Positions 3,181 to 19,862 of a DNA stretch of 30,178 nucleotides are shown in pieces; position 1 is the first letter of the stretch, and every line of letters starts with the position of its first letter. The notes under the pieces were generated by a model that did no database searches, was not told the DNA's origin, and worked only from the letters and a program-made list of their open reading frames with translations. The stretch lies in UHGV virus genome UHGV-0251015, one strand, 5' to 3'. The DNA comes from a virus. The translations under genes and the position numbers were made by a program.

Positions 3181-3501
3181 ATGGCTGAAAAACAGGTTAA
3201 AGATTACGAAAAGTTTGTTGTGCGTTTCCCTGACGGGATGAGGGACGCGATTGCGGAGAGAGCCAAACGAAACGGGCGCTCTATGAACTCAGAGATTGTG
3301 CAGATACTGGAAGATGCCTTGAATGCAGAAAATACTCTTGGGGAAATAGCAGACAAAATCAACAGCGTCTCGGTTCCGCTAAATGTTGATGCGCTAGTTC
3401 AACTTCAAGCCCAAGTGATCGCCATGCAAAAAGAAATACAGGAAAAATTCAGAGAGCAGAACGAAAAGTTGAGAGAACTGCTAAACAAAAAACCCACCTG
3501 A
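3181..3501 (+). CDS. mnt: Mnt-like ribbon-helix-helix repressor with C-terminal coiled coil
   Basis: FPDGMRDAIAERAKRNGRSMNSEIVQILEDAL is an Arc/Mnt-type RHH signature (recall); GAGGTG RBS; transcribed divergently from arc. Confidence 0.65.
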   Translation: MAEKQVKDYEKFVVRFPDGMRDAIAERAKRNGRSMNSEIVQILEDALNAENTLGEIADKINSVSVPLNVDALVQLQAQVIAMQKEIQEKFREQNEKLRELLNKKPT

Positions 3502-3535: not shown

Positions 3536-4198
3536 TTATCTTCTGATCGCTTTACGCCAATCCCCGGATAATCTAGATATATCCCAACACGACTGAACAA
3601 CTTCAGTAAAATACTCTCTATCCATTGGCGCGATTCCTGGCCAATCTTTCATTCGATTTACTAACGCATCTTTTGGTATGCCCTTCTTTTGATTCAAGGA
3701 GGTTTGTTCGCAAATCGCCCTTACCGCAGCATCATATTCAGCCTGAGCATAATGATTCACACTAAGAAGCACAGTGTATGCTGTTGAAAGTGAATTCATG
3801 GAAGATGAGAGTTCTTTCTTCCTCCGACACTCTTTATCAGCAAGGCATTTCTCTTCAGCTAGTTTTTTTTCCGCTCTCTTCTTGTTATTGAAGGCGTTAA
3901 TCCCAGAATCATAAGCGTTAGCCCATACATTGTAATAACACTCTCCATCCCAGCCGCATTGCGTGGTATCTGGAGCGACAAGAATCATCCCTGTTTTTTT
4001 TAGATAATCATTTTTAAGCCTATTAACAGTCCATGACTCTCCGCTTTTTGCTACATACTCTTTATCACCGAATTCGCTTTGCTGTTGCTGAGTGGTTGGT
4101 GGGGTTATCGAACACCCGTACAATAAAGAAGCAGAAAGAATCAAGAGAAAGTGTGATTTTATTTTTCTTACACATTCACCACGATTAATTAATGCCAT
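3536..4198 (-). CDS. Putative lipoprotein (220 aa), accessory/moron gene of unknown function
   Basis: Basic N-terminus, hydrophobic stretch and LLYGC lipobox-like motif; Cys-rich; visibly AT-rich; GGAG RBS; terminator directly downstream. No family recognised. Confidence 0.6.
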   Translation of the reverse strand: MALINRGECVRKIKSHFLLILSASLLYGCSITPPTTQQQQSEFGDKEYVAKSGESWTVNRLKNDYLKKTGMILVAPDTTQCGWDGECYYNVWANAYDSGINAFNNKKRAEKKLAEEKCLADKECRRKKELSSSMNSLSTAYTVLLSVNHYAQAEYDAAVRAICEQTSLNQKKGIPKDALVNRMKDWPGIAPMDREYFTEVVQSCWDISRLSGDWRKAIRR

Positions 4199-4396
4199 AC
4201 GGCGACTCCTGTCAATTTAGCATGATATACAACGGATTACCTTTGAGTTGTTCATCATATTAACGAACACAATAACTTCAGGTAAACACCTAATCCTCCC
4301 TCATCATCATGCATGAAGAAAAAACACGTATTTATCATACATGTAGCATTAATGACTGTTACCTCCAATTGGTTGGCAAAAATCATCACTGACAGG

Positions 4397-7903: not shown

Positions 7904-9394
7904 TTATAAAATCGCGGTTGAGGACATTGTGATGGACTGAATAAGTTGCCCATCGACATAATAGAAAATGACACCTTTCAGGTCGCGCTCAATGCGTGCA
8001 GAGCCTGACTGTGTCGGGATGTACAGGAACCAGCCCTGTGAATACAGCGTCGATGAGATATCTTTTCCAACTGTGTTATTCACAATTCTGGTTTGCGCAT
8101 TATCAAGTTTCACGCCACGCTGAATAGCCCCGAAATTGAGAGCCTGTTCAGCAACATCAATAACAGCAGCAGAAACTGCGCCGTATCCTGTCTCATTGAA
8201 CGGGTAAGACTGGTTATTGGTGAACAGGTTAGCAAAAGCACTAACCAGATTGGCATTAATCCATACCTGATTAATAAAACTGTCCAGCCATACAAACTTG
8301 CCAGTAATGGCACCATCAGATGCGTACTGCGCCATTGTTTTGTTCAGGCTGTATGAGCCGTAGAAGTTGTAACCGTTTGATTTCAGTGCCTGAGCGGTCG
8401 CCAGATCGCTTACGTTGGGTGCTAACCCTGAAAATCCACGGAACTTGAACGAGATACGCCCATTGGTGCGTGCAAAATCCACGGATGCAGCATATGCCAG
8501 TGCTGTAACGCTATACAGGTATGTTCCGTACACCGGAAAAATGTTCTCGTAGCCATTTGCCACAACCACTTTCTGCACAAAGCAATTTGCATTATTGGCT
8601 ACCGTTCCTGCTGAAGTGGTATCGTGAACAACATATCCAAACCGGTTTTTACTGCTGCTTGCCCATGCGCACAATTCTGTTTTCTGGTCATCGGTCAGTT
8701 CGACCAGCGAGTTAAACAGGATCCAGTTCTGGTTGACGTTGATGATGTTGTTCATCGTGTCTGTCAGCGTTACCGCATCATAACCCGGTGATACAATCGC
8801 TGCGGAATCCTGCGTAAGTAACAACCCGGTAGCCAGAGCGCCAGCAGAGGCATAAGACACTTCACTCTCTGCGCCAGTAGTGGCAGAGCGAATGATGAAT
8901 CGGTTAGCTATTGGCAACCATTCAACCACCACCTTGCTTGCACCAATTCCAACCTGCAACTTGGACGCAATGTCGCTAAAACTTGTGGCTGTGGACAAAT
9001 CAATTGATGTGCTGGTAGTCGACTCACCGTCAATGGAAAGGGTGATTGTTCCTGCTGGAATCGCTTTCAGTGTTGCCAGGGTAACACCTTTCAGGTTGCC
9101 GGACAGAAGATACCCAGCCACTGGTGAAGTAACAATACGATACATCAGCAGTTCACCAGGAATAACGGATGAGTTTTCGTATCCGTTAAAATACTGTTGT
9201 GCTGCGAGGAATTCTTTCGATTCACTCCCCATCAAAGCTGATACATCAGATGAGGAGTAATAAGATTGTACCGCGCCAACCGGGATAAGCTCGTTATCGG
9301 TCAACATCAGGCCGTTAGCATCAACCGCAGAACCGGCAGGCGTAACGACATTGGGCGTGATATTAAAATCTACAGATAAAGGGATTGTGCTCAT
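7904..9394 (-). CDS. Putative tail sheath-like / major tail protein
   Basis: 496-aa Ser/Thr/Gly-rich structural-type protein preceding tube and chaperone genes; assignment by synteny and composition. Confidence 0.5.
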   Translation of the reverse strand: MSTIPLSVDFNITPNVVTPAGSAVDANGLMLTDNELIPVGAVQSYYSSSDVSALMGSESKEFLAAQQYFNGYENSSVIPGELLMYRIVTSPVAGYLLSGNLKGVTLATLKAIPAGTITLSIDGESTTSTSIDLSTATSFSDIASKLQVGIGASKVVVEWLPIANRFIIRSATTGAESEVSYASAGALATGLLLTQDSAAIVSPGYDAVTLTDTMNNIINVNQNWILFNSLVELTDDQKTELCAWASSSKNRFGYVVHDTTSAGTVANNANCFVQKVVVANGYENIFPVYGTYLYSVTALAYAASVDFARTNGRISFKFRGFSGLAPNVSDLATAQALKSNGYNFYGSYSLNKTMAQYASDGAITGKFVWLDSFINQVWINANLVSAFANLFTNNQSYPFNETGYGAVSAAVIDVAEQALNFGAIQRGVKLDNAQTRIVNNTVGKDISSTLYSQGWFLYIPTQSGSARIERDLKGVIFYYVDGQLIQSITMSSTAIL

Positions 9395-9418
9395 GACAAT
9401 ATTTATACCTTTGATAAA

Positions 9419-9445
9419 TGATATAATACCTCAGCATCCAGGAGG
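9419..9445 (+). promoter_or_regulatory. Extended -10 promoter and RBS of the HNH endonuclease gene
   Basis: TGATATAAT at 9419-9427 (TGnTATAAT) and AGGAGG at 9440-9445, 5 nt before the ATG at 9451. Confidence 0.45.
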
Positions 9446-9450
9446 TTATC

Positions 9451-9933
9451 ATGTGTAAATTCAATGATTTATTTGCGTATTGCAAACGAACCGGTGTTTT
9501 GACATACAAGAAAAAATGCGGAATAAAAATGCCAGGGCAAATTGCTGGGTCTGTCAACAAAAATAACTACATAAATCTTGGCATTGAAAAGAAAAGATAC
9601 TATGCCCACAGGATAATATGGGAAATGCATAATGGAACCATTCCTGATGGCTATCAGGTAGACCACATAAATGGCATAAGGTCTGATAATCGAATCGAGA
9701 ATCTCAGAATAGTGAAAAACAGCGAGAACTCGAAGAACCAGAAGCGAAAATCTACCAACAAATCTGGTATGACTGGCGTTTCATGGGATACGCAAACCCA
9801 GAGATGGAGAGCGCATATAACTGTTAATGGAAAGATGATATCTCTTGGAAGATATATACATAAGCTTGATGCATTAACAGCCAGAAAAAATGCCGAGATT
9901 AAATACAATTTTCACGAAAATCACGGGCGTTAA
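9451..9933 (+). CDS. HNH homing endonuclease with AP2-type DNA-binding domain
   Basis: YYAHRIIWEMHNG...DHINGIRSDNRIENLRIV...NSEN (HNH motif) then GVSWDTQTQRWRAHITVNGKMISLGRY (AP2-like); opposite strand to all flanking late genes; AT-rich. Confidence 0.8.
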   Translation: MCKFNDLFAYCKRTGVLTYKKKCGIKMPGQIAGSVNKNNYINLGIEKKRYYAHRIIWEMHNGTIPDGYQVDHINGIRSDNRIENLRIVKNSENSKNQKRKSTNKSGMTGVSWDTQTQRWRAHITVNGKMISLGRYIHKLDALTARKNAEIKYNFHENHGR

Positions 9934-10481
9934 TCGACGTTAACATCAACGATCTCTGTAGATACCTCTGCCTTATCAAAATAATCTTGCTGCATGCTCA
10001 CGGTTATGTGTGCCTGCATCGACAATGTCAGCACCCATCTTTCCTGCCACTGACTCTCGGCGTTGATCATCGGCGCCTGAATGGCAGGAGATGAGTAAAG
10101 CGGCGCAAGCCGTGCATCAATAGCCTTGATGATGTCGTAGCCATATCCACTGGTGAATGTTGTTTCCAGTGCAATAGCTCTATCCCCTGCCCCCTGACCA
10201 TAGATATCTACCTGAATATCAGCCTGGCGAACTTCCGTATATCCCATGGTGCTTGTGTCCGGAGAGCCGGTATCTTGCTTAAGCTCTCTCGTCGTGGATA
10301 GTCTGGTGAATCGCAAAGGGGTCAGGATACAGAACTGATCTTTGGGCATTGGTACACGGTTAGCCTGAGCCTGCAGGCATTTACCAGCGATAGGTTCTAT
10401 GTAGCCAGCAAGTACATCGATAATATTATCAACAGTGAAATCATTCATGGGCTTACCTGCAATACAGCAATCAGCCGGCAC
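9930..10481 (-). CDS. Hypothetical virion morphogenesis protein
   Basis: ORF track; overlapping neighbours in the late operon between head and tail genes; no family recognised. Confidence 0.45.
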   Translation of the reverse strand: MPADCCIAGKPMNDFTVDNIIDVLAGYIEPIAGKCLQAQANRVPMPKDQFCILTPLRFTRLSTTRELKQDTGSPDTSTMGYTEVRQADIQVDIYGQGAGDRAIALETTFTSGYGYDIIKAIDARLAPLYSSPAIQAPMINAESQWQERWVLTLSMQAHITVSMQQDYFDKAEVSTEIVDVNVD

Positions 10482-10822
10482 CAGTCAGGCCACAACTCTA
10501 TTGGCTCAACAACAAGCCATTGCTCCCCGTTAATCACGAAGATATCTCCGCCCTGCTCTAGTTCTCGCTGAACACTGAAGTAATTACCATTGACGTAAAT
10601 CACTTTTGCCAGCCCCTGAATATTCAGTCCATCGACGTGTTGCATGTCGCCGCGACTGATTGGCTGTAGTTGAATGGTAACGTGCTGGTCAGGGAGATAA
10701 GACGGAATCGGCTTGCGACCGGGGCCGATAGTTTCACCTGCATACTTTTTCAGGATTGCTGGGATGTTGGGGTTAATGCTTGTGATCGCGTTATTGGCTA
10801 TCTGTCGAAGATTCAATTTCAC
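10445..10822 (-). CDS. Hypothetical virion morphogenesis protein
   Basis: ORF track; overlapping neighbours in the late operon; no family recognised. Confidence 0.45.
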   Translation of the reverse strand: MKLNLRQIANNAITSINPNIPAILKKYAGETIGPGRKPIPSYLPDQHVTIQLQPISRGDMQHVDGLNIQGLAKVIYVNGNYFSVQRELEQGGDIFVINGEQWLVVEPIELWPDWCRLIAVLQVSP

Positions 10823-11357
10823 CTACCTCATAATCAACAGCCCTTAACATGTCCCCGGTCCATATGAGAGGCTTGTTGTTGCTCATATCAACATCAACCT
10901 TTTTCACCGGACCGAAATAGCCCGGACCACCAAAAACATCTTCTCTGGCCTTCACTACATCCCACTTAGTCATTTCCGCCCTGTTATTAGGGAATCTACT
11001 TCTTAGAAGTACTGTTACCGGGCTTAATGGCGGCTCTTGAATAGTTCGAATGGATTCCTGAATGTCTGCTTTTATGATCTCGCCGATAAGATTCAGAACA
11101 GTATCCGCATCTCCGTCATGCGATTTCATGAGCTTTTCGACCTTTTCTGACCACTCTTCAGATTTAGAAGCTATAGCATTCCTGAAGAATGGCCTTGGCG
11201 GACTTCCACTTGCCGGGTTACCAAATTCGTTAGATGCTGCAACCATTGGCATAGAAGTACCATCCGGATAGGTGGCATCTTCAAGAAACCCGACCTTCAA
11301 TTGCTTTGAGAACAACTCACTACCAACTGAATCAAGGAACTCCATCACCTTATCCAT
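10791..11357 (-). CDS. Hypothetical virion morphogenesis protein
   Basis: ORF track; overlapping neighbours in the late operon; no family recognised. Confidence 0.45.
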   Translation of the reverse strand: MDKVMEFLDSVGSELFSKQLKVGFLEDATYPDGTSMPMVAASNEFGNPASGSPPRPFFRNAIASKSEEWSEKVEKLMKSHDGDADTVLNLIGEIIKADIQESIRTIQEPPLSPVTVLLRSRFPNNRAEMTKWDVVKAREDVFGGPGYFGPVKKVDVDMSNNKPLIWTGDMLRAVDYEVGEIESSTDSQ

Positions 11358-11800: not shown

Positions 11801-12148
11801 CTATTTTTCGTCAGCCTTTTTTACGCCCGGAGCCGGATTTTCCGGGTCAAGGCCTTCAAGGCCAGTTTTTGATTCTTTCAGATCTTTACCCTGCGCATTC
11901 AGACTGCGAATATCTTTCTGAATGAAGATTGCATTGTTCTGAATATACGCGGCATCCTTATAGGTCTCGATGAACTTATCCATGAAGTCTTTCTCGACCA
12001 TGGTAACTCCGAAAGCCCCCTCAGGAATTGCACCATCAAGACCACGGAGGGCGGTTGTTGCCGCCCCGTTCAGGATTACTGTTTTGCCATCCAGAGTTAC
12101 CTGAAGGCCATTTGGCAATTTGCAGCCAACGCTTACCATTTCTGCCAT
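11801..12148 (-). CDS. Hypothetical structural protein
   Basis: ORF track; immediately downstream of major capsid gene. Confidence 0.4.
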   Translation of the reverse strand: MAEMVSVGCKLPNGLQVTLDGKTVILNGAATTALRGLDGAIPEGAFGVTMVEKDFMDKFIETYKDAAYIQNNAIFIQKDIRSLNAQGKDLKESKTGLEGLDPENPAPGVKKADEK

Positions 12149-12151
12149 GAA

Positions 12152-13192
12152 TTAAACTCCCAACATGCTTGCAAATGCCAGCGGCTGGCGAATGATTGCG
12201 CCCCAGGTGCCACCGGTTTTCTTTTGTTTGTACGCGGACAGGTCAACAACAACTGGATGCGCACGCATTTTTTCGGTAAATGCGCAGTAGCCGGTGTCCT
12301 GACCATCCAAATCGTCGGCGATCAGCTGAACCAGTTCGCCGGATTCGGTTTTGTACTCGACAGCAGTAACAACGCGCAGGTTCGGGAAGTTTTTCTTCAA
12401 CTGATCAGACACGTTGACGTTGTACATGTTGGTCTTGGTCAGATTTGCTTCTGACTCTGGAGACATCGCCAGCGTCATCTTGCTGTCTCGCTCAACGTAC
12501 CCCTTGGTCTGCTTCACTAACTGCATGTAAAGCGCCTGGATATCGTCATACACCGCCTGACCGTCTTTTGTTGCCCAGGTGGTTCCGCCGCTCGCACCAG
12601 TTGCACCCGGGGTGATTGATGCCGGAAGGTTAGGGTCATTCAGAATGCCGTAGTTCTTCAGGCCAGCAACGCCGAAGAAGTAGGACTTGTTCTGAAACTT
12701 ATTCAGGGTCAGCGCAGAAGCAGTATTCAGTTGTTGAGCCCATGCAATGCGGCCTTCACCGTAACGGTCAAGTTCCAGCTCACCCCACTGAGTAATGGTC
12801 TGGTACAGATAGGACTCACGAGCAACCCAGTTGACGTTAGCATTTACCTGCCCATTATTGTTGTAGTCACCATAACTGGAAACCTGACCCGTTGATTCCA
12901 CAACCGGGAATTGTGCGGTCATGGTGGTCCAGTCTCCCTTCTTCGTTTCCCCCAGAATTTCCACCGCTTTCATCGGAGTGACAAGGATGCGAATCAGTTC
13001 CGGGTCAACGTAATTAGTGAAGTACCATGGAATGCCAGAGTTGCTGGTTGTTACCAGTGAAGGCTGAGAGTCCATTGCATAGGAATAGCTATTAGCAACA
13101 GCATCCGTCAGATAGGCTTTGGCTTCCGGAAGGATTACACCGTAATCTCGCTCAGCCATAGCTTTATGTTGTAAAAATTCTGCGTTATTCAT
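12152..13192 (-). CDS. Major capsid protein
   Basis: 346-aa protein placed after the scaffold-like and decoration-like genes; composition typical of capsid proteins; assignment by synteny and recall. Confidence 0.65.
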
Positions 13193-15858: not shown

Positions 15859-17314
15859 ATTCAGATTCCATCATGTGGTATGGGCTGGCCTTATCCGACT
15901 GGCGCATGCTTCTTATTGCATCAAGGTCGAATACGCCAGCTTCAGCATAGTTCTTGTCAGCCTCAGACTGATGTTTCATGATCTCGGCTTTCTCTGCTTC
16001 TGTAAGCTCGTACAGCGGCAGGAATTCAAAATCAATGTCAGGGTCAATCTCGCCAAATTCATTCAACTGGATAACATCCAGCACTGTTTTCAGCGGCACC
16101 CTGAACAGATTCTCCTGCATGGCGTGTATTGAGTCATAGAAGACGCGGATTTCGCCATCAGATGAAGCGTTTAGCCCGTTAGGAGTGATGCCAAGGAGCT
16201 TAACCAGAGGAATGCTTGATACCGATGCCATTTGTTCCTGCGCTTGCGCCTGAAGAGCATCAACTCCGGACAGACTTGTCACAAACTGGAAGAATTCTTC
16301 TCCATCCTTATCAATAAGGAACATTCCGCGATTGTCGCGAACCTTATTGAATAGCTCGGCACGCATAAACAGGTTTGGGTCTGCAATTCCAGACAAGGCA
16401 TTCTGCATGTTCGTCTTCAGCCCATAGACCACAAACGAATGAACCAGATCGCTAACGCTGTCACGTGTTCTCAACCAGTTCTGCACGTATGGCTCTGCCA
16501 TCTGACTCAGCGACAAGCCGCCGAAGTTGTACGCCGCTTTGAGAATGTCTGGCACCTGGCGAGAAATCATTGTCAACATGCGACTGGCGTGAACCGTGCG
16601 CCCCATGACATACCATTCAGATGGATTGAAGAAGTCAGGGCTTAGAGGATTGTCAGCGTTATACACGCCCGGGTAAGTCCACATAGCCTCGATAACGCGG
16701 AAACCATTCAGGCTTCCTTTGGTAATCTTGCGCGGGCTGATATAGAGCTTCTTATCCAGTTCGTCGGGAACCAGCCAGGCTGAGTTACCGCTTGGCGTCT
16801 TCACGTCGATATAAATCTGCCCGCGCCCGAAGTAACCGTCATGTTCCGCTGCCTCGCGAAACTTCTCTCGCACTCTGAAACGCTTTAATGCTTCGTCAAG
16901 CTGGCGAAGTTTATCGGCCTTGTCGTCACCATCGTCTTTACCTACATGCTTCAGCTCAATCCATTTTCGCGTCATCTCTTCTGCTATCGTGCCAGTAATC
17001 TTGCGATACTCCGGCAACTGAGCAAGTTGAGACAGATATGGGTAGCCAGGAAATCCACCGTAGCCATATGCGGTGATGTTTGCTGAGTTAAGGTAACTGT
17101 ACGGCGTGGAGTCCATCGCCAGAGCTGACTCCCCAATATGTTCAGGAATAACGCCTGGCGGGGGTACGTATCTCTCAATTCTACGCAATGCCTCGCCTTC
17201 ATTTTTAATTCGCTCCTGTTCGCTAATAATCGCAAGAACATTCGCCAGAGACATTGGCTGTTTCGCCTCTTCTTTCTGAGGCTCAGATTTTTTCTTTCTC
17301 AAAAAATTAAACAC
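15779..17314 (-). CDS. Portal protein
   Basis: 511-aa protein directly after the large terminase with acidic C-terminus; canonical position. Confidence 0.8.
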
Positions 17315-18840
17315 TATGCGAGCCTCAAAAGGTCTTCAGATATACGTAACGGACCATTGCCATTTTTCATCTCATCGATGGCATCCATCATCGGATCAAG
17401 CTGGTCGTCGTGCGTATTGAAATCAGGATTAATAGCTTCCATCTCAACGAGGAAGTCGTTGATGAATGGTGCGCTGCTGGGCAACTTGATGTAACCGGAC
17501 TCGATATAACCCTGTACGTCCATCAGTCGCGTGTACTTATCCTTATCGCGCTGAATTGCTTTGATGGGGCATATCGCTTTTTTACGGATGTTCTGTATCA
17601 GGCCTGTGCCAGATGACTTGTCCTCTATCGCCATGTGGCGAAGCGGCCCATTCTTCAGAGTTTTGCACTTTTCCCAGAATGCAACAGCACGGCGTTGTAA
17701 TTCATCGGCCTCCCATTTACCGCGAATCATATCGATCAGATAGATGTACCCGTCAGTACCAAGCCCCCAGTGCTCGAATACTGAGAAGTCGTTGACCTCT
17801 TTTGTTTTCTGTGCGGTGTCTCCATAGACGGCACGCCATTGCATGGGAGGGAGTACCGAATATTCACCAAACCATTCAGACTTAATAAGCCCCCCGCCTT
17901 TGGCGGTTGGTCGTTGCTGATAAAGAGCATTCCATACAAGGGAACCGCGCTGTTTGCATTTCTCTACGAACTCTCTCGGCATGCGCTCAGGGAACAGAAT
18001 TTCACCGGGATTGCGCAGTCGATATACGTTACCGTTGAGTTCATGGATCTCCTCCTTTTCAGCCTCCATAGGGAAGCTAACTACGCGCCAGCGTTCCCCG
18101 CCTTCTTCTGCCAGTTTTAATAACTGGCCGGCGAGATCGTTTTGATGCCAGCGTGTCAGAATGATGACGATGCCGTTTATCTTCGGGTCAACACGCGTGA
18201 AGAATGTCGTGTCGTACCAGTCCATCACCGCTTCCTGGTAAGTTGGAGACGATGCGGTTTTGTAATCTTTCGCGGGGTCATCAATAACCCCAATGTTCAT
18301 ACCCTGCCCGGTGATACCACCGTTAACACCAGCGGAACGATATGAGCCGCCGTGTAGTTCGCCTTTGGCATCAACTGGTTCCCATAGCTCGGTTTTGTTG
18401 ATACCTCCCGCCAAACTGCGTCCTGAGGGTATTTTCACGTCAGGGAAAACATCAGCGTACTTATCAGATGTGATAATGCGTTTAACGTCACGGCTCATTC
18501 GGTCTGACAGGTCAGAAGAATATGAGCACGAGATAATGTTCCATGATGGATGCTGTCCTAACACATACGCTGGGAAGCGGCGAGAGCACAACTCACTCTT
18601 TCCTGAGCGCGGAGGGGCAAACACCATTAGCCTGGGCATGTTTCCGGCTTTAACTTCATCCAGAAAGTGATCTAGCTCAGCACAAAGCAGCTCGTTAAAC
18701 CAACCTGTTTCGTATTGCGGATTAGTGTACAAAGTGAAATCGAGAAGGTTTTTTCTTGCTGAGCGGATAGCCAGCTCTTTGTGCAACTCATAAATCTGAG
18801 CGTTTCGATTCAAGCTGATTGGAGCGCCTGCCATTACCAA
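17314..18840 (-). CDS. Terminase large subunit
   Basis: Walker A-like PPRSGKS near N-terminus, downstream nuclease-type acidic residues; overlaps small subunit 3' end. Confidence 0.85.
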
Positions 18841-19378
18841 GCTCCTTCAGTTTCTCTTCAAGTAACTCTTCTGACATATCGGCATAACGAACAGGCCCAC
18901 CATCAGCGCCAGTTATTTCTGTAGATGTTTGCTCTTTAAATGCCTGAACAGAAACATGCTTGCCAAGAAGTTCGAGGTTTTTGACCTTATCAGGCCATTT
19001 GATTTTCTTCAGGAGAGCAGCACTATCTGCTGATGCCATCTCGACGACATCCATTCCTGATAGCGTTGTACGCCACACCTTAGGCCAGTCTTTAATCGGC
19101 TTCAGTTCGCCATTGGCAAGCAGGATATCCAGCACGTCCATCTGGTCTATTTCAGTCAGCCGTCGCAATACATAGGCAGCGTCTATACCTACCTCTTCAT
19201 TGCGTTCAGCCTTTAGCTCAGCAATGCGATCTGCTATGTCAGGTTTTGACAGGTTCTCGCTACCAGTGGCGCGAGCAGTTTTTTCGCTGTAACCCGCCCT
19301 GATAGCTGCCTGAGTGGCGTTTAAATCTTTCAGGTACTCACGGGCAAACAGCTCTTGTTTGTCTGTGAGCTTTGCCAT
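18788..19378 (-). CDS. Terminase small subunit
   Basis: N-terminal ELFAREYL...NATQAAIRAGYSEKTARATGSENLSKPDIADRIAE motif typical of small terminases (recall); precedes large subunit. Confidence 0.75.
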   Translation of the reverse strand: MAKLTDKQELFAREYLKDLNATQAAIRAGYSEKTARATGSENLSKPDIADRIAELKAERNEEVGIDAAYVLRRLTEIDQMDVLDILLANGELKPIKDWPKVWRTTLSGMDVVEMASADSAALLKKIKWPDKVKNLELLGKHVSVQAFKEQTSTEITGADGGPVRYADMSEELLEEKLKELGNGRRSNQLESKRSDL

Positions 19379-19481: not shown

Positions 19482-19862
19482 CTACTGTTCGCTTAACTTC
19501 TGCTTCAGCAAGTAACCTTCGAGCATCCAGATTTTGTTTACAGCATTTTGCCGGGCAATCTTCCGACCAATTTCTGCATCAAAATTTTCAGGGCTTGCAC
19601 AGGCACTCTCTCCGGTGACGGTGAAGCCATTCTTCAGCACCAGTACGCAGAAAGTGAGCAACTTCAATGGTGATAAATCACGATCGCCTTCTTCTGGTTT
19701 TTCTCTGCCACAATATTCGTTGCTGGAAATGGCACCATTTCGTCCATCATAAGCAGTAAAGTAATGCTCGCTTTTAATCACGTCTTCGATGTGCTGCGGG
19801 CTGATTCGCGGTGCCGTTTTGCCTTTCTCAACGATTTCTTTTTCGATTTGCTGGTCGTTCAT
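19482..19862 (-). CDS. Hypothetical phage protein
   Basis: ORF track; between lysis and packaging genes; no family confidently recognised. Confidence 0.45.
   Translation of the reverse strand: MNDQQIEKEIVEKGKTAPRISPQHIEDVIKSEHYFTAYDGRNGAISSNEYCGREKPEEGDRDLSPLKLLTFCVLVLKNGFTVTGESACASPENFDAEIGRKIARQNAVNKIWMLEGYLLKQKLSEQ

Follow-up and report, generated by a model that had tools for sequence, protein, structure and literature searches.

The 30,178-nt virus genome UHGV-0251015 (the window, by which we mean the whole stretch that was analyzed) is a lambdoid prophage of Escherichia coli that reads along the minus strand. Among its late genes is one plus-strand gene, at 9451..9933 (including the stop codon), which starts with ATG and encodes an HNH-AP2 endonuclease of 160 amino acids. 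We think that this is a free-standing ("intronless") homing endonuclease gene, placed antisense at the junction between the neck terminator and tail sheath genes, and that it is spreading by homing; we put the probability of this reading at roughly 0.85. Its direct basis is the domains of the protein, its catalytic residues, the selection acting on it, the precise presence or absence of the gene among relatives, a patch of foreign sequence beside it, the occurrence of the same cassette in different backbones, and the orthologs in other genera. From these we infer the cleavage activity, the choice between a nick and a double-strand cut, the exact target, and the timing of expression.

Domains of the protein

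The protein has an N-terminal region like that of I-HmuI, the intron-encoded enzyme of Bacillus phage SPO1, followed by an HNH_3 nuclease core and an AP2-type DNA-binding domain. The core (residues 50-94, at 9598..9732 on the plus strand) matches HNH_3 (PF13392) with E = 3.9e-24 and 84.5 bits, against a cut-off of 24.8 bits, and the match covers positions 1-45 of the 46 in the profile. The protein also matches phrog_99 ("HNH endonuclease") at 4e-63. Based on the Pfam envelope, the conservation of residues, and the alignment to I-HmuI, the core includes D71, H72, N80, N84, and N93. These residues and N96 are intact and are invariant in 40 homologs, so the HNH site is not mutated, which an earlier note on this sequence had named as one of two outcomes that would speak against a homing endonuclease.

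A search of the PDB with the single protein (using phmmer) gave no match, and the family profile was required. This profile, from 43 homologs, matches I-HmuI (PDB:1U3E) at 9e-8 over positions 3-101. The pattern is DH...N...N, with D71 and H72 opposite D74 and H75. We take D74, H75, and N96 to be the catalytic residues of I-HmuI, and D71, H72, and N93 have the same spacing.

The AP2 domain (approximately residues 107-151, at 9769..9903 on the plus strand) was identified from a profile match and from the predicted fold, which has three beta strands and one helix. Pfam's AP2 model (PF00847) gives 24.5 bits (E = 3.5e-5, residues 107-135), which does not reach the gathering score of 33.3 bits. Three homologs (P0006, P0007, and P0023) do have a precomputed match to PF00847, and the family profile also matches the AP2 domain of Arabidopsis WRI1 (5.4e-5), as well as TEM1 (0.025).

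The AlphaFold2 model of the protein (pLDDT 89.7) is consistent with both domains. The HNH region has strands at 68-72 and 85-89 and then a helix at 90-93. The AP2 region has strands at 110-113, 118-125, and 128-135 and a helix at 138-151. According to Foldseek, the best match of the model in the PDB is I-HmuI (1u3e_M; E = 6e-4, probability 1.00), across 93 columns that correspond to the first 93 residues. The last ~50 residues fit AP2 structures: 1GCC with an rmsd of 1.2 Å over 48 columns (TM-score of 0.65, normalized by the target), 7ET4 with an rmsd of 1.5 Å, and 7WQ5. Overall, the profiles and the model indicate an HNH nuclease of the I-HmuI type joined to an AP2 DNA-binding domain; the earlier note had likewise proposed an HNH-AP2 endonuclease. 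Metal-dependent cleavage is predicted.

NCBIfam has no match to the protein, and the only PADLOC models that match it are generic "homing endonuclease" models. Homologs are common in phages. We found them in 3,786 phage records, all at under 60% identity; thousands of these are 45-50% identical and are annotated as HNH, as homing endonuclease, or as "AP2 domain protein." Judging by its sequence, the protein belongs to a very large group of HNH_3/AP2 phage endonucleases, and the gene has the genomic hallmarks of a free-standing homing endonuclease.

A precise insert that most relatives lack

The gene fills the gap between the start codon of the tail sheath gene (9392-9394) and the stop codon of the neck terminator gene (9930-9932), and both of these neighbors are on the minus strand. 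The TAA of the endonuclease gene (9931-9933) and the convergent TTA of the terminator gene (9930-9932) overlap in the tetranucleotide TTAA. All of the other plus-strand open reading frames (ORFs) of at least 100 amino acids between about 3536 and 22800 are nested within larger minus-strand genes that have family support. The earlier note was thus right that this is the sole plus-strand gene in ~20 kb of minus-strand late genes and that it is seated exactly between two structural genes.

Alignments to E. coli sites that have no endonuclease gene ("empty" sites) place the boundaries of the insert at 9395 and 9929. The resulting 535-bp insert (9395..9929) is AT-rich, as the note had also said: its GC content is 37.2%, versus 47.1% for the window. 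This is within the lowest 0.1% of 539-nt segments, and no other stretch of such length in the window is lower.

We then examined relatives that lack the insert, which is the comparison that the earlier note had recommended. All 20 of the complete E. coli genomes that contain the same prophage module (at 97-99% identity) lack it, and the matched span is 1,959 bp in these relatives versus 2,501 bp in the window. In the empty E. coli sites (for example, L001 and L003), the stop codon of the terminator gene and the start codon of the sheath gene overlap as ATGA; elsewhere they are 0-3 nt apart. In wider surveys, in which loci were found by aligning the terminator protein, the junction is empty in 8 of 9 genomes of species representatives (from GTDB) and in 52 of 53 contigs from IMG/VR. 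So there is insertion polymorphism, and conservation in all related phages, which would have spoken against mobility, is not what we see. In every empty locus examined (80 of 80), the terminator and sheath genes abut or overlap. This lineage of endonuclease is absent from all 20 complete E. coli genomes and all 53 IMG/VR relatives, and a distant blastn search with the insert and the adjacent patch (see below) found no match in any complete E. coli genome. The exact protein is present on 17 other contigs (from an E. coli draft genome and from assemblies of sequencing runs or metagenomes), always at the same junction and in the same orientation.

Two of the relatives (L004 and L016) have terminator genes that were called at just 105 amino acids. 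We considered whether these are truncated, and rejected this: it is a difference in gene calling, and the full frame of 172 amino acids is open.

Separately, 7 of the 20 complete E. coli genomes with an empty module (H4, H8-H10, and H16-H18) have two places that match it. Related prophages of the same type are therefore resident together in one chromosome, which is a setting where homing from prophage to prophage could occur.

A foreign patch and the spread of the cassette

The insert does not come alone. Compared to the empty E. coli alleles, the window is 98-100% identical in the sheath gene, the collar gene, and most of the terminator gene. In the final 112 nt of the latter (9930..10041 on the minus strand, or the last 37 codons and the stop), however, identity falls to 62%. 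Many of the changes are synonymous, and the C-terminus is one codon longer. At the other end of the insert, the window matches the empty alleles again from the sheath start codon onward.

The contrasts in identity suggest that this 3' end is foreign and was co-converted with the endonuclease gene. The patch is 76-83% identical to the Salmonella and Edwardsiella alleles that lie beside orthologous endonuclease genes. Compared to the Edwardsiella tarda prophage, the endonuclease gene is 80% identical, the patch 81%, and the leader 88%, while the flanking genes are just 64-70% identical. Because the endonuclease gene and the patch are both closer to the E. tarda carrier than their flanks are, we conclude that they behave as one unit of foreign origin.

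We also considered whether co-conversion had reached into the sheath gene. Over its first 100 nt, carriers from E. coli and Salmonella share 94-98% identity, versus 60-88% further in, but several empty loci are highly conserved there as well, so we rejected this candidate.

The insert and patch together (651 nt) have 0-1 differences among the E. coli carriers, and the patch itself (9930-10041) has none among all of the endonuclease-bearing E. coli contigs. The flanks of these carriers differ at 19-40 sites. For instance, the right flank of the window has 2 differences from the empty strain SC406 (L001) and 40 from another carrier (L009), and the closest relative of that carrier in the right flank is an empty strain. 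Thus, at least three E. coli backbones contain an identical cassette of gene and patch, and empty backbones are interspersed among them. This fits recombinational spread and is not what a single ancient insertion followed by deletions would predict. Deletion alone is also disfavored because it would not regenerate the ATGA overlap and the alternative allele of the last 37 codons. The polymorphism, the foreign patch, the movement of the cassette among backbones, and a similar mosaic in Edwardsiella (described next) all agree with the earlier view that this is a mobile homing endonuclease gene.

Orthologs in other genera

Orthologs are found at the same junction, also antisense, in Edwardsiella tarda (83% identity), Salmonella enterica (76%), a metagenome (68%), and Aeromonas hydrophila (64%). 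The pairwise dN/dS among the orthologs is 0.07-0.13 (with dS saturated), so the protein is under purifying selection.

The comparison within Edwardsiella parallels the one within E. coli. Across the collar and terminator genes, the E. tarda carrier (L014) shares ~90% identity with Edno5 and GF-2, two phages whose site is empty, but this falls to 41-65% over the final ~120 nt of the terminator gene. As in E. coli, the break in identity comes at the codons for QWQE.

The two empty phages are not alike in this region. In Edno5, the terminator gene is of the empty type throughout. In GF-2 (L037), the QWQE codons are followed, at the start of the patch, by the carrier-type codons GAAAGATGG (ERW) and then by sequence of the empty type. 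This mixed patch may have been left by an earlier, partial conversion or by the loss of an endonuclease gene.

Promoter, ribosome-binding site, and effects on the sheath gene

The earlier note had credited the gene with its own extended -10 promoter and a strong ribosome-binding site, and we found both. The extended -10 element, read from the sequence, is TGATATAAT (9419..9427 on the plus strand), 24 nt upstream of the ATG. No other match to TGNTATAAT occurs on either strand of the 30-kb window, where ~0.87 matches are expected by chance. Given this expectation, the weight of the match comes from its location in the 56-nt leader and from its conservation: TGATATAAT is identical in all six of the orthologous loci, from five genera. 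The Shine-Dalgarno sequence AGGAGG (9440..9445 on the plus strand) is 5 nt upstream of the ATG, and GGAGG is kept in all of the orthologs. A generic scan for -35/-10 promoters did not flag this promoter because a good -35 element is missing. A generic scan for intrinsic terminators found none near or downstream of the endonuclease gene.

With the insertion, the sheath gene is no longer coupled in translation to the terminator gene through ATGA and instead has an independent leader (9395-9415, read on the minus strand). The only purine-rich motif in this leader is AAAGG (the complement of 9408-9412), ~13 nt from the ATG of the sheath gene. Also, the late transcript must cross 535 nt of sequence that is antisense to the endonuclease gene. 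The insertion may have a cost for sheath expression.

Proposed mechanism and the likely target

We propose that the gene would spread as follows. It would be transcribed from its own conserved extended -10 promoter, of the sigma-70 type, and translated from its strong ribosome-binding site. The AP2 domain and the I-HmuI-like N-terminal region would then bind to a specific site in a related phage or prophage that shares the cell and has an endonuclease-free allele; most probably, this site is in the final ~110 nt of the terminator gene or spans the ATGA. There, the ββα-metal site of the HNH domain (D71, H72, and N93) would nick or cut the DNA. Repair by homologous recombination, with the endonuclease-bearing genome as the template, would copy the gene and also the stretch that separates the break from the insertion point; in this case, that stretch would be the 112 nt of foreign sequence at the 3' end of the terminator gene. 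The donor allele would not be a substrate, as it differs in the 112-nt stretch and its junction is split.

I-HmuI nicks one strand. By analogy to I-HmuI, and to MobA and MobE of phage T4 (PMC2988022), this enzyme may also nick rather than cut both strands.

The earlier note had suggested that the target is the homologous intergenic site in endonuclease-free relatives. This does not fit the empty loci, which have no spacer: the terminator stop and the sheath start overlap (ATGA) or are 0-3 nt apart. Because the empty genomes have no intergenic site and the patch is confined to the terminator gene, a target within the 3' end of that gene, or one that spans its junction with the sheath gene, is more likely. 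A target in the 3' end would account for the one-sided 112-nt patch and for the common breakpoint. A site that spans the ATGA would be split by the insertion.

Fifteen positions separate the alleles of seven carriers from those of nine empty loci, and these include synonymous differences (ATA/ATY, AGC/TCG, GAT/GAC, and TTT/TTC). We considered whether these positions determine immunity to cleavage but dropped this idea, as empty Edwardsiella phages share several of the carrier bases and the comparison is confounded by phylogeny.

Several points weigh against spread by homing or against our placement of the target. In E. coli, the sheath side shows no foreign patch that we could detect. The differences between carrier and empty alleles are confounded with phylogeny, and several of the "carrier" bases (TTT, GAT, and AAG) also occur in the empty Edwardsiella phages. 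That E. coli and Edwardsiella have the same breakpoint, at the QWQE codons, may mean only that homology resumes there, and not that the DNA is cut there. A gene that is useful to the phage would likewise be expected to show strong purifying selection and to persist for long at one site. And I-HmuI, the nearest characterized enzyme, is only ~22% identical; homing activity is predicted here from sequence.

Alternative explanations

The alternative that we take most seriously is that the nuclease has been co-opted as a weapon. Here, it would be expressed constitutively from the repressed prophage, and its chief function would be to damage superinfecting or co-resident relatives that lack the gene, by interference competition or marker exclusion; the prophage or the lysogen would benefit, and gene conversion would be a by-product. 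The conserved extended -10 promoter would be compatible with this, since it is of the sigma-70 type, the gene is oriented independently of the late operon, and no late promoter would be needed. The dN/dS of ~0.1 with saturated dS implies long-term maintenance, the seven E. coli genomes with two related copies imply that the alleles do encounter each other, and marker exclusion by phage homing endonucleases is established (PMC2988022). However, the same cleavage would yield both outcomes, so sequence data cannot separate this from homing. The rarity of the gene, which is missing from all of the complete E. coli genomes and IMG/VR relatives that we surveyed, argues against a strong benefit, and PADLOC reports nothing more specific than homing endonucleases. 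We consider it quite unlikely that the gene is primarily a weapon. A combined version is perhaps a little easier to accept, but it is still doubtful: the endonuclease, expressed in the repressed prophage, would be both a standing weapon and a conversion device against endonuclease-free kin, and the 112 nt that are carried along would define a cut site at the QWQE codons. If this were true, then a prophage-borne homing endonuclease would double as a factor for kin-specific interference with superinfection.

Another alternative is that the gene is a stationary remnant or accessory gene (a moron) that was gained once by illegitimate recombination and was then deleted from most lineages, with no mobility driven by the endonuclease. 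Low GC content, a separate promoter, and opposite orientation are typical of morons as well. But besides the difficulty with deletion that was described above (the ATGA overlap and the 62%-identical alternative codons would not be restored), this scenario does not account for the identical cassette in backbones that are interleaved with empty ones, for the same structure in Edwardsiella, for the related but distinct HNH-AP2 genes at this junction and two neighboring ones (see below), or for purifying selection on the catalytic residues. We consider it very improbable.

Least plausible of all is that the gene encodes an AP2-type regulator, or is an antisense unit that modulates late-operon (sheath) expression, with its nuclease activity irrelevant: the AP2 fold, the convergence with the late operon with no intrinsic terminator downstream, and the replacement of the ATGA coupling by a 56-nt leader with the sheath's AAAGG ~13 nt from its ATG would all suit this, but the catalytic residues of the HNH site do not vary, most relatives do without the gene, and no regulatory target is evident.

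Two other possibilities were rejected. An enzyme encoded by an intron or an intein is not expected between two complete genes on the opposite strand, and no Rfam family (including group I and group II introns) reaches its threshold in the window. An HNH protein that assists the terminase in cos cleavage does not fit either: the terminase genes are ~8 kb away (17314-19378), and the endonuclease gene is missing from most relatives.

Other endonuclease genes at neighboring junctions

Relatives of this prophage contain other HNH-AP2 genes nearby. In E. coli KCJ3K291 (NZ_CP054407.1; L002 3004-3504, minus strand), a different HNH-AP2 gene, whose product is 49-50% identical to the window's, occupies the collar/terminator junction, the next one upstream. 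This gene points the same way as the late genes, and the 3' end of the collar gene contains a diverged patch of ~40 nt. In the KCJ3K291 copy, VDHIN is replaced by VDRIN, which changes the catalytic histidine to arginine, and so from its sequence it looks like a homing endonuclease gene that is starting to decay. Copies of this type from IMG/VR (L039 and L059 2022-2495) are intact.

Further HNH-AP2 genes are found at the neck-tail junctions of a metagenome-assembled genome from Pluralibacter (L020 4012-4503 and 6049-6537, both on the minus strand) and in L054, L076, and L091. One gene of the Pluralibacter type encodes 163 amino acids, is 40% identical to the window's, and lies antisense at the same terminator/sheath junction, next to a terminator with a carrier-type C-terminus. 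Another (41-45% identical) lies antisense between the sheath and tube genes. With HNH-AP2 genes at the collar/terminator, terminator/sheath, and sheath/tube junctions, three consecutive junctions of the neck and tail are landing sites for endonucleases.

One carrier contig (L007), which is otherwise identical, has an additional HNH_3 gene of 165 amino acids (11887-12384, minus strand) directly upstream of the small terminase gene. At this position, the window has a gene of the N4 gp49/Sf6 gp66 family (19482-19862, minus strand). L007 is also without the capsid-scaffold segment.

The surrounding prophage

The downstream neighbor of the endonuclease gene is the tail sheath gene (7904..9394, minus strand), which belongs to DUF3383 (PF11863, 5.8e-107) and to phrog_205 ("tail sheath") and resembles E217 gp31. 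The upstream neighbor (9930..10448, minus strand) encodes the neck (tail) terminator of 172 amino acids, as identified by PF23961 (1e-21) and by protein alignment; copies in relatives are annotated as "phage neck terminator protein."

The virion module is like those of the Edwardsiella phages Edno5 and GF-2 (genus Gofduovirus) and of Pseudomonas phage E217. In order, the prophage has replication genes (O-like and primase/helicase), a nin region (NinB, Dam, NinX, and RusA), the antiterminator Q, and lysis genes (lysozyme and Rz). Next come the genes for small and large terminase, portal, a Mu-F-like protein, scaffold/cement, major capsid, DUF4054, and collar, and then those for neck terminator, DUF3383 tail sheath, tube, chaperone, and a tape-measure-like protein that bears an SLT domain. 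At the end are an Arc-like repressor and a P22-type antirepressor. A megablast search with 8400-10900 against 50,697 phage records found no match, and the nearest sequenced phages (Edno5 and GF-2 from Edwardsiella and IKEMa6-1 from Vibrio) were found by protein search alone.

The stretch with the second-lowest GC content in the window (38-40%, at about 3720-4220) covers an ORF of 220 amino acids (3536-4198, minus strand) that adjoins the gene for the Arc-like repressor (3181-3501, plus strand). This ORF has no match in Pfam and no credible match in PADLOC, and it is probably an accessory (moron) gene.

Relationship to known systems and significance

The closest structural precedent is I-HmuI, which shares the N-terminal DNA-binding strands and the HNH (ββα-metal) core, both in profile and in fold. 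But at ~22% identity the two differ in several ways: I-HmuI is encoded by a group I intron and has helical and helix-turn-helix modules for DNA binding at its C-terminus, while the window's gene is free-standing and antisense and encodes an AP2 domain.

In genomic arrangement, the gene is more like the free-standing Mob-class (MobA and MobE) and Seg (SegG) endonucleases of phage T4. Free-standing phage endonucleases sit between conserved genes and cut a neighboring gene some distance away, and the DNA in between is co-converted (PMC2988022). The Mob and Seg genes likewise have a sporadic distribution, a target in a neighboring gene, and co-conversion of the flank, and the 112-nt foreign patch is the equivalent in a natural population of their co-conversion tracts. 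There are differences as well. The Mob proteins have HNH and a C-terminal region of the zinc-finger type, instead of AP2 (PMC10448857). The Mob and Seg genes are found in virulent T-even phages, are mostly co-oriented with their neighbors, and use phage promoters, whereas this gene is in a temperate prophage, is antisense, and has its own promoter of the sigma-70 type. Also, the distance between target and insertion is hundreds to thousands of base pairs for Mob and Seg, but would be ~110 nt or less here.

HNH with AP2 is a recognized architecture for homing endonucleases, and different endonucleases are interchangeable at one locus (PMC10448857). The HNH-AP2 enzymes of phages and cyanobacteria (Magnani et al. 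2004, in PMC10448857), including the ICP1-like "IPA-HNH" enzymes, resemble the window's protein in having an N-terminal HNH and a C-terminal AP2 domain. They also share the association with essential or structural phage genes and the interchangeability at one locus (PMC10448857). The HNH of the ICP1 enzyme is too divergent for Pfam's HNH_3, unlike the window's protein, which matches it strongly.

These results do not challenge the current understanding of homing endonucleases. What is modestly new is the temperate host, the antisense position in a late operon with a conserved promoter of its own, the short and sharply bounded patch, and the colonization of three consecutive junctions. All members of this endonuclease lineage seen so far are at the terminator/sheath junction of prophage modules like those of Gofduovirus. 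For annotation, the identity of the gene is settled, which accounts for two local anomalies in a structural operon that is otherwise 98-100% identical: a low-GC gene on the opposite strand and a patch with 62% identity. More broadly, this is a clean natural example of intronless homing in temperate enterobacterial prophages, with matched empty and filled alleles and a replicate in a second genus. The locus would be a convenient place to map where an HNH-AP2 enzyme has its target and to find out whether homing endonucleases carried by prophages are active in lysogeny.

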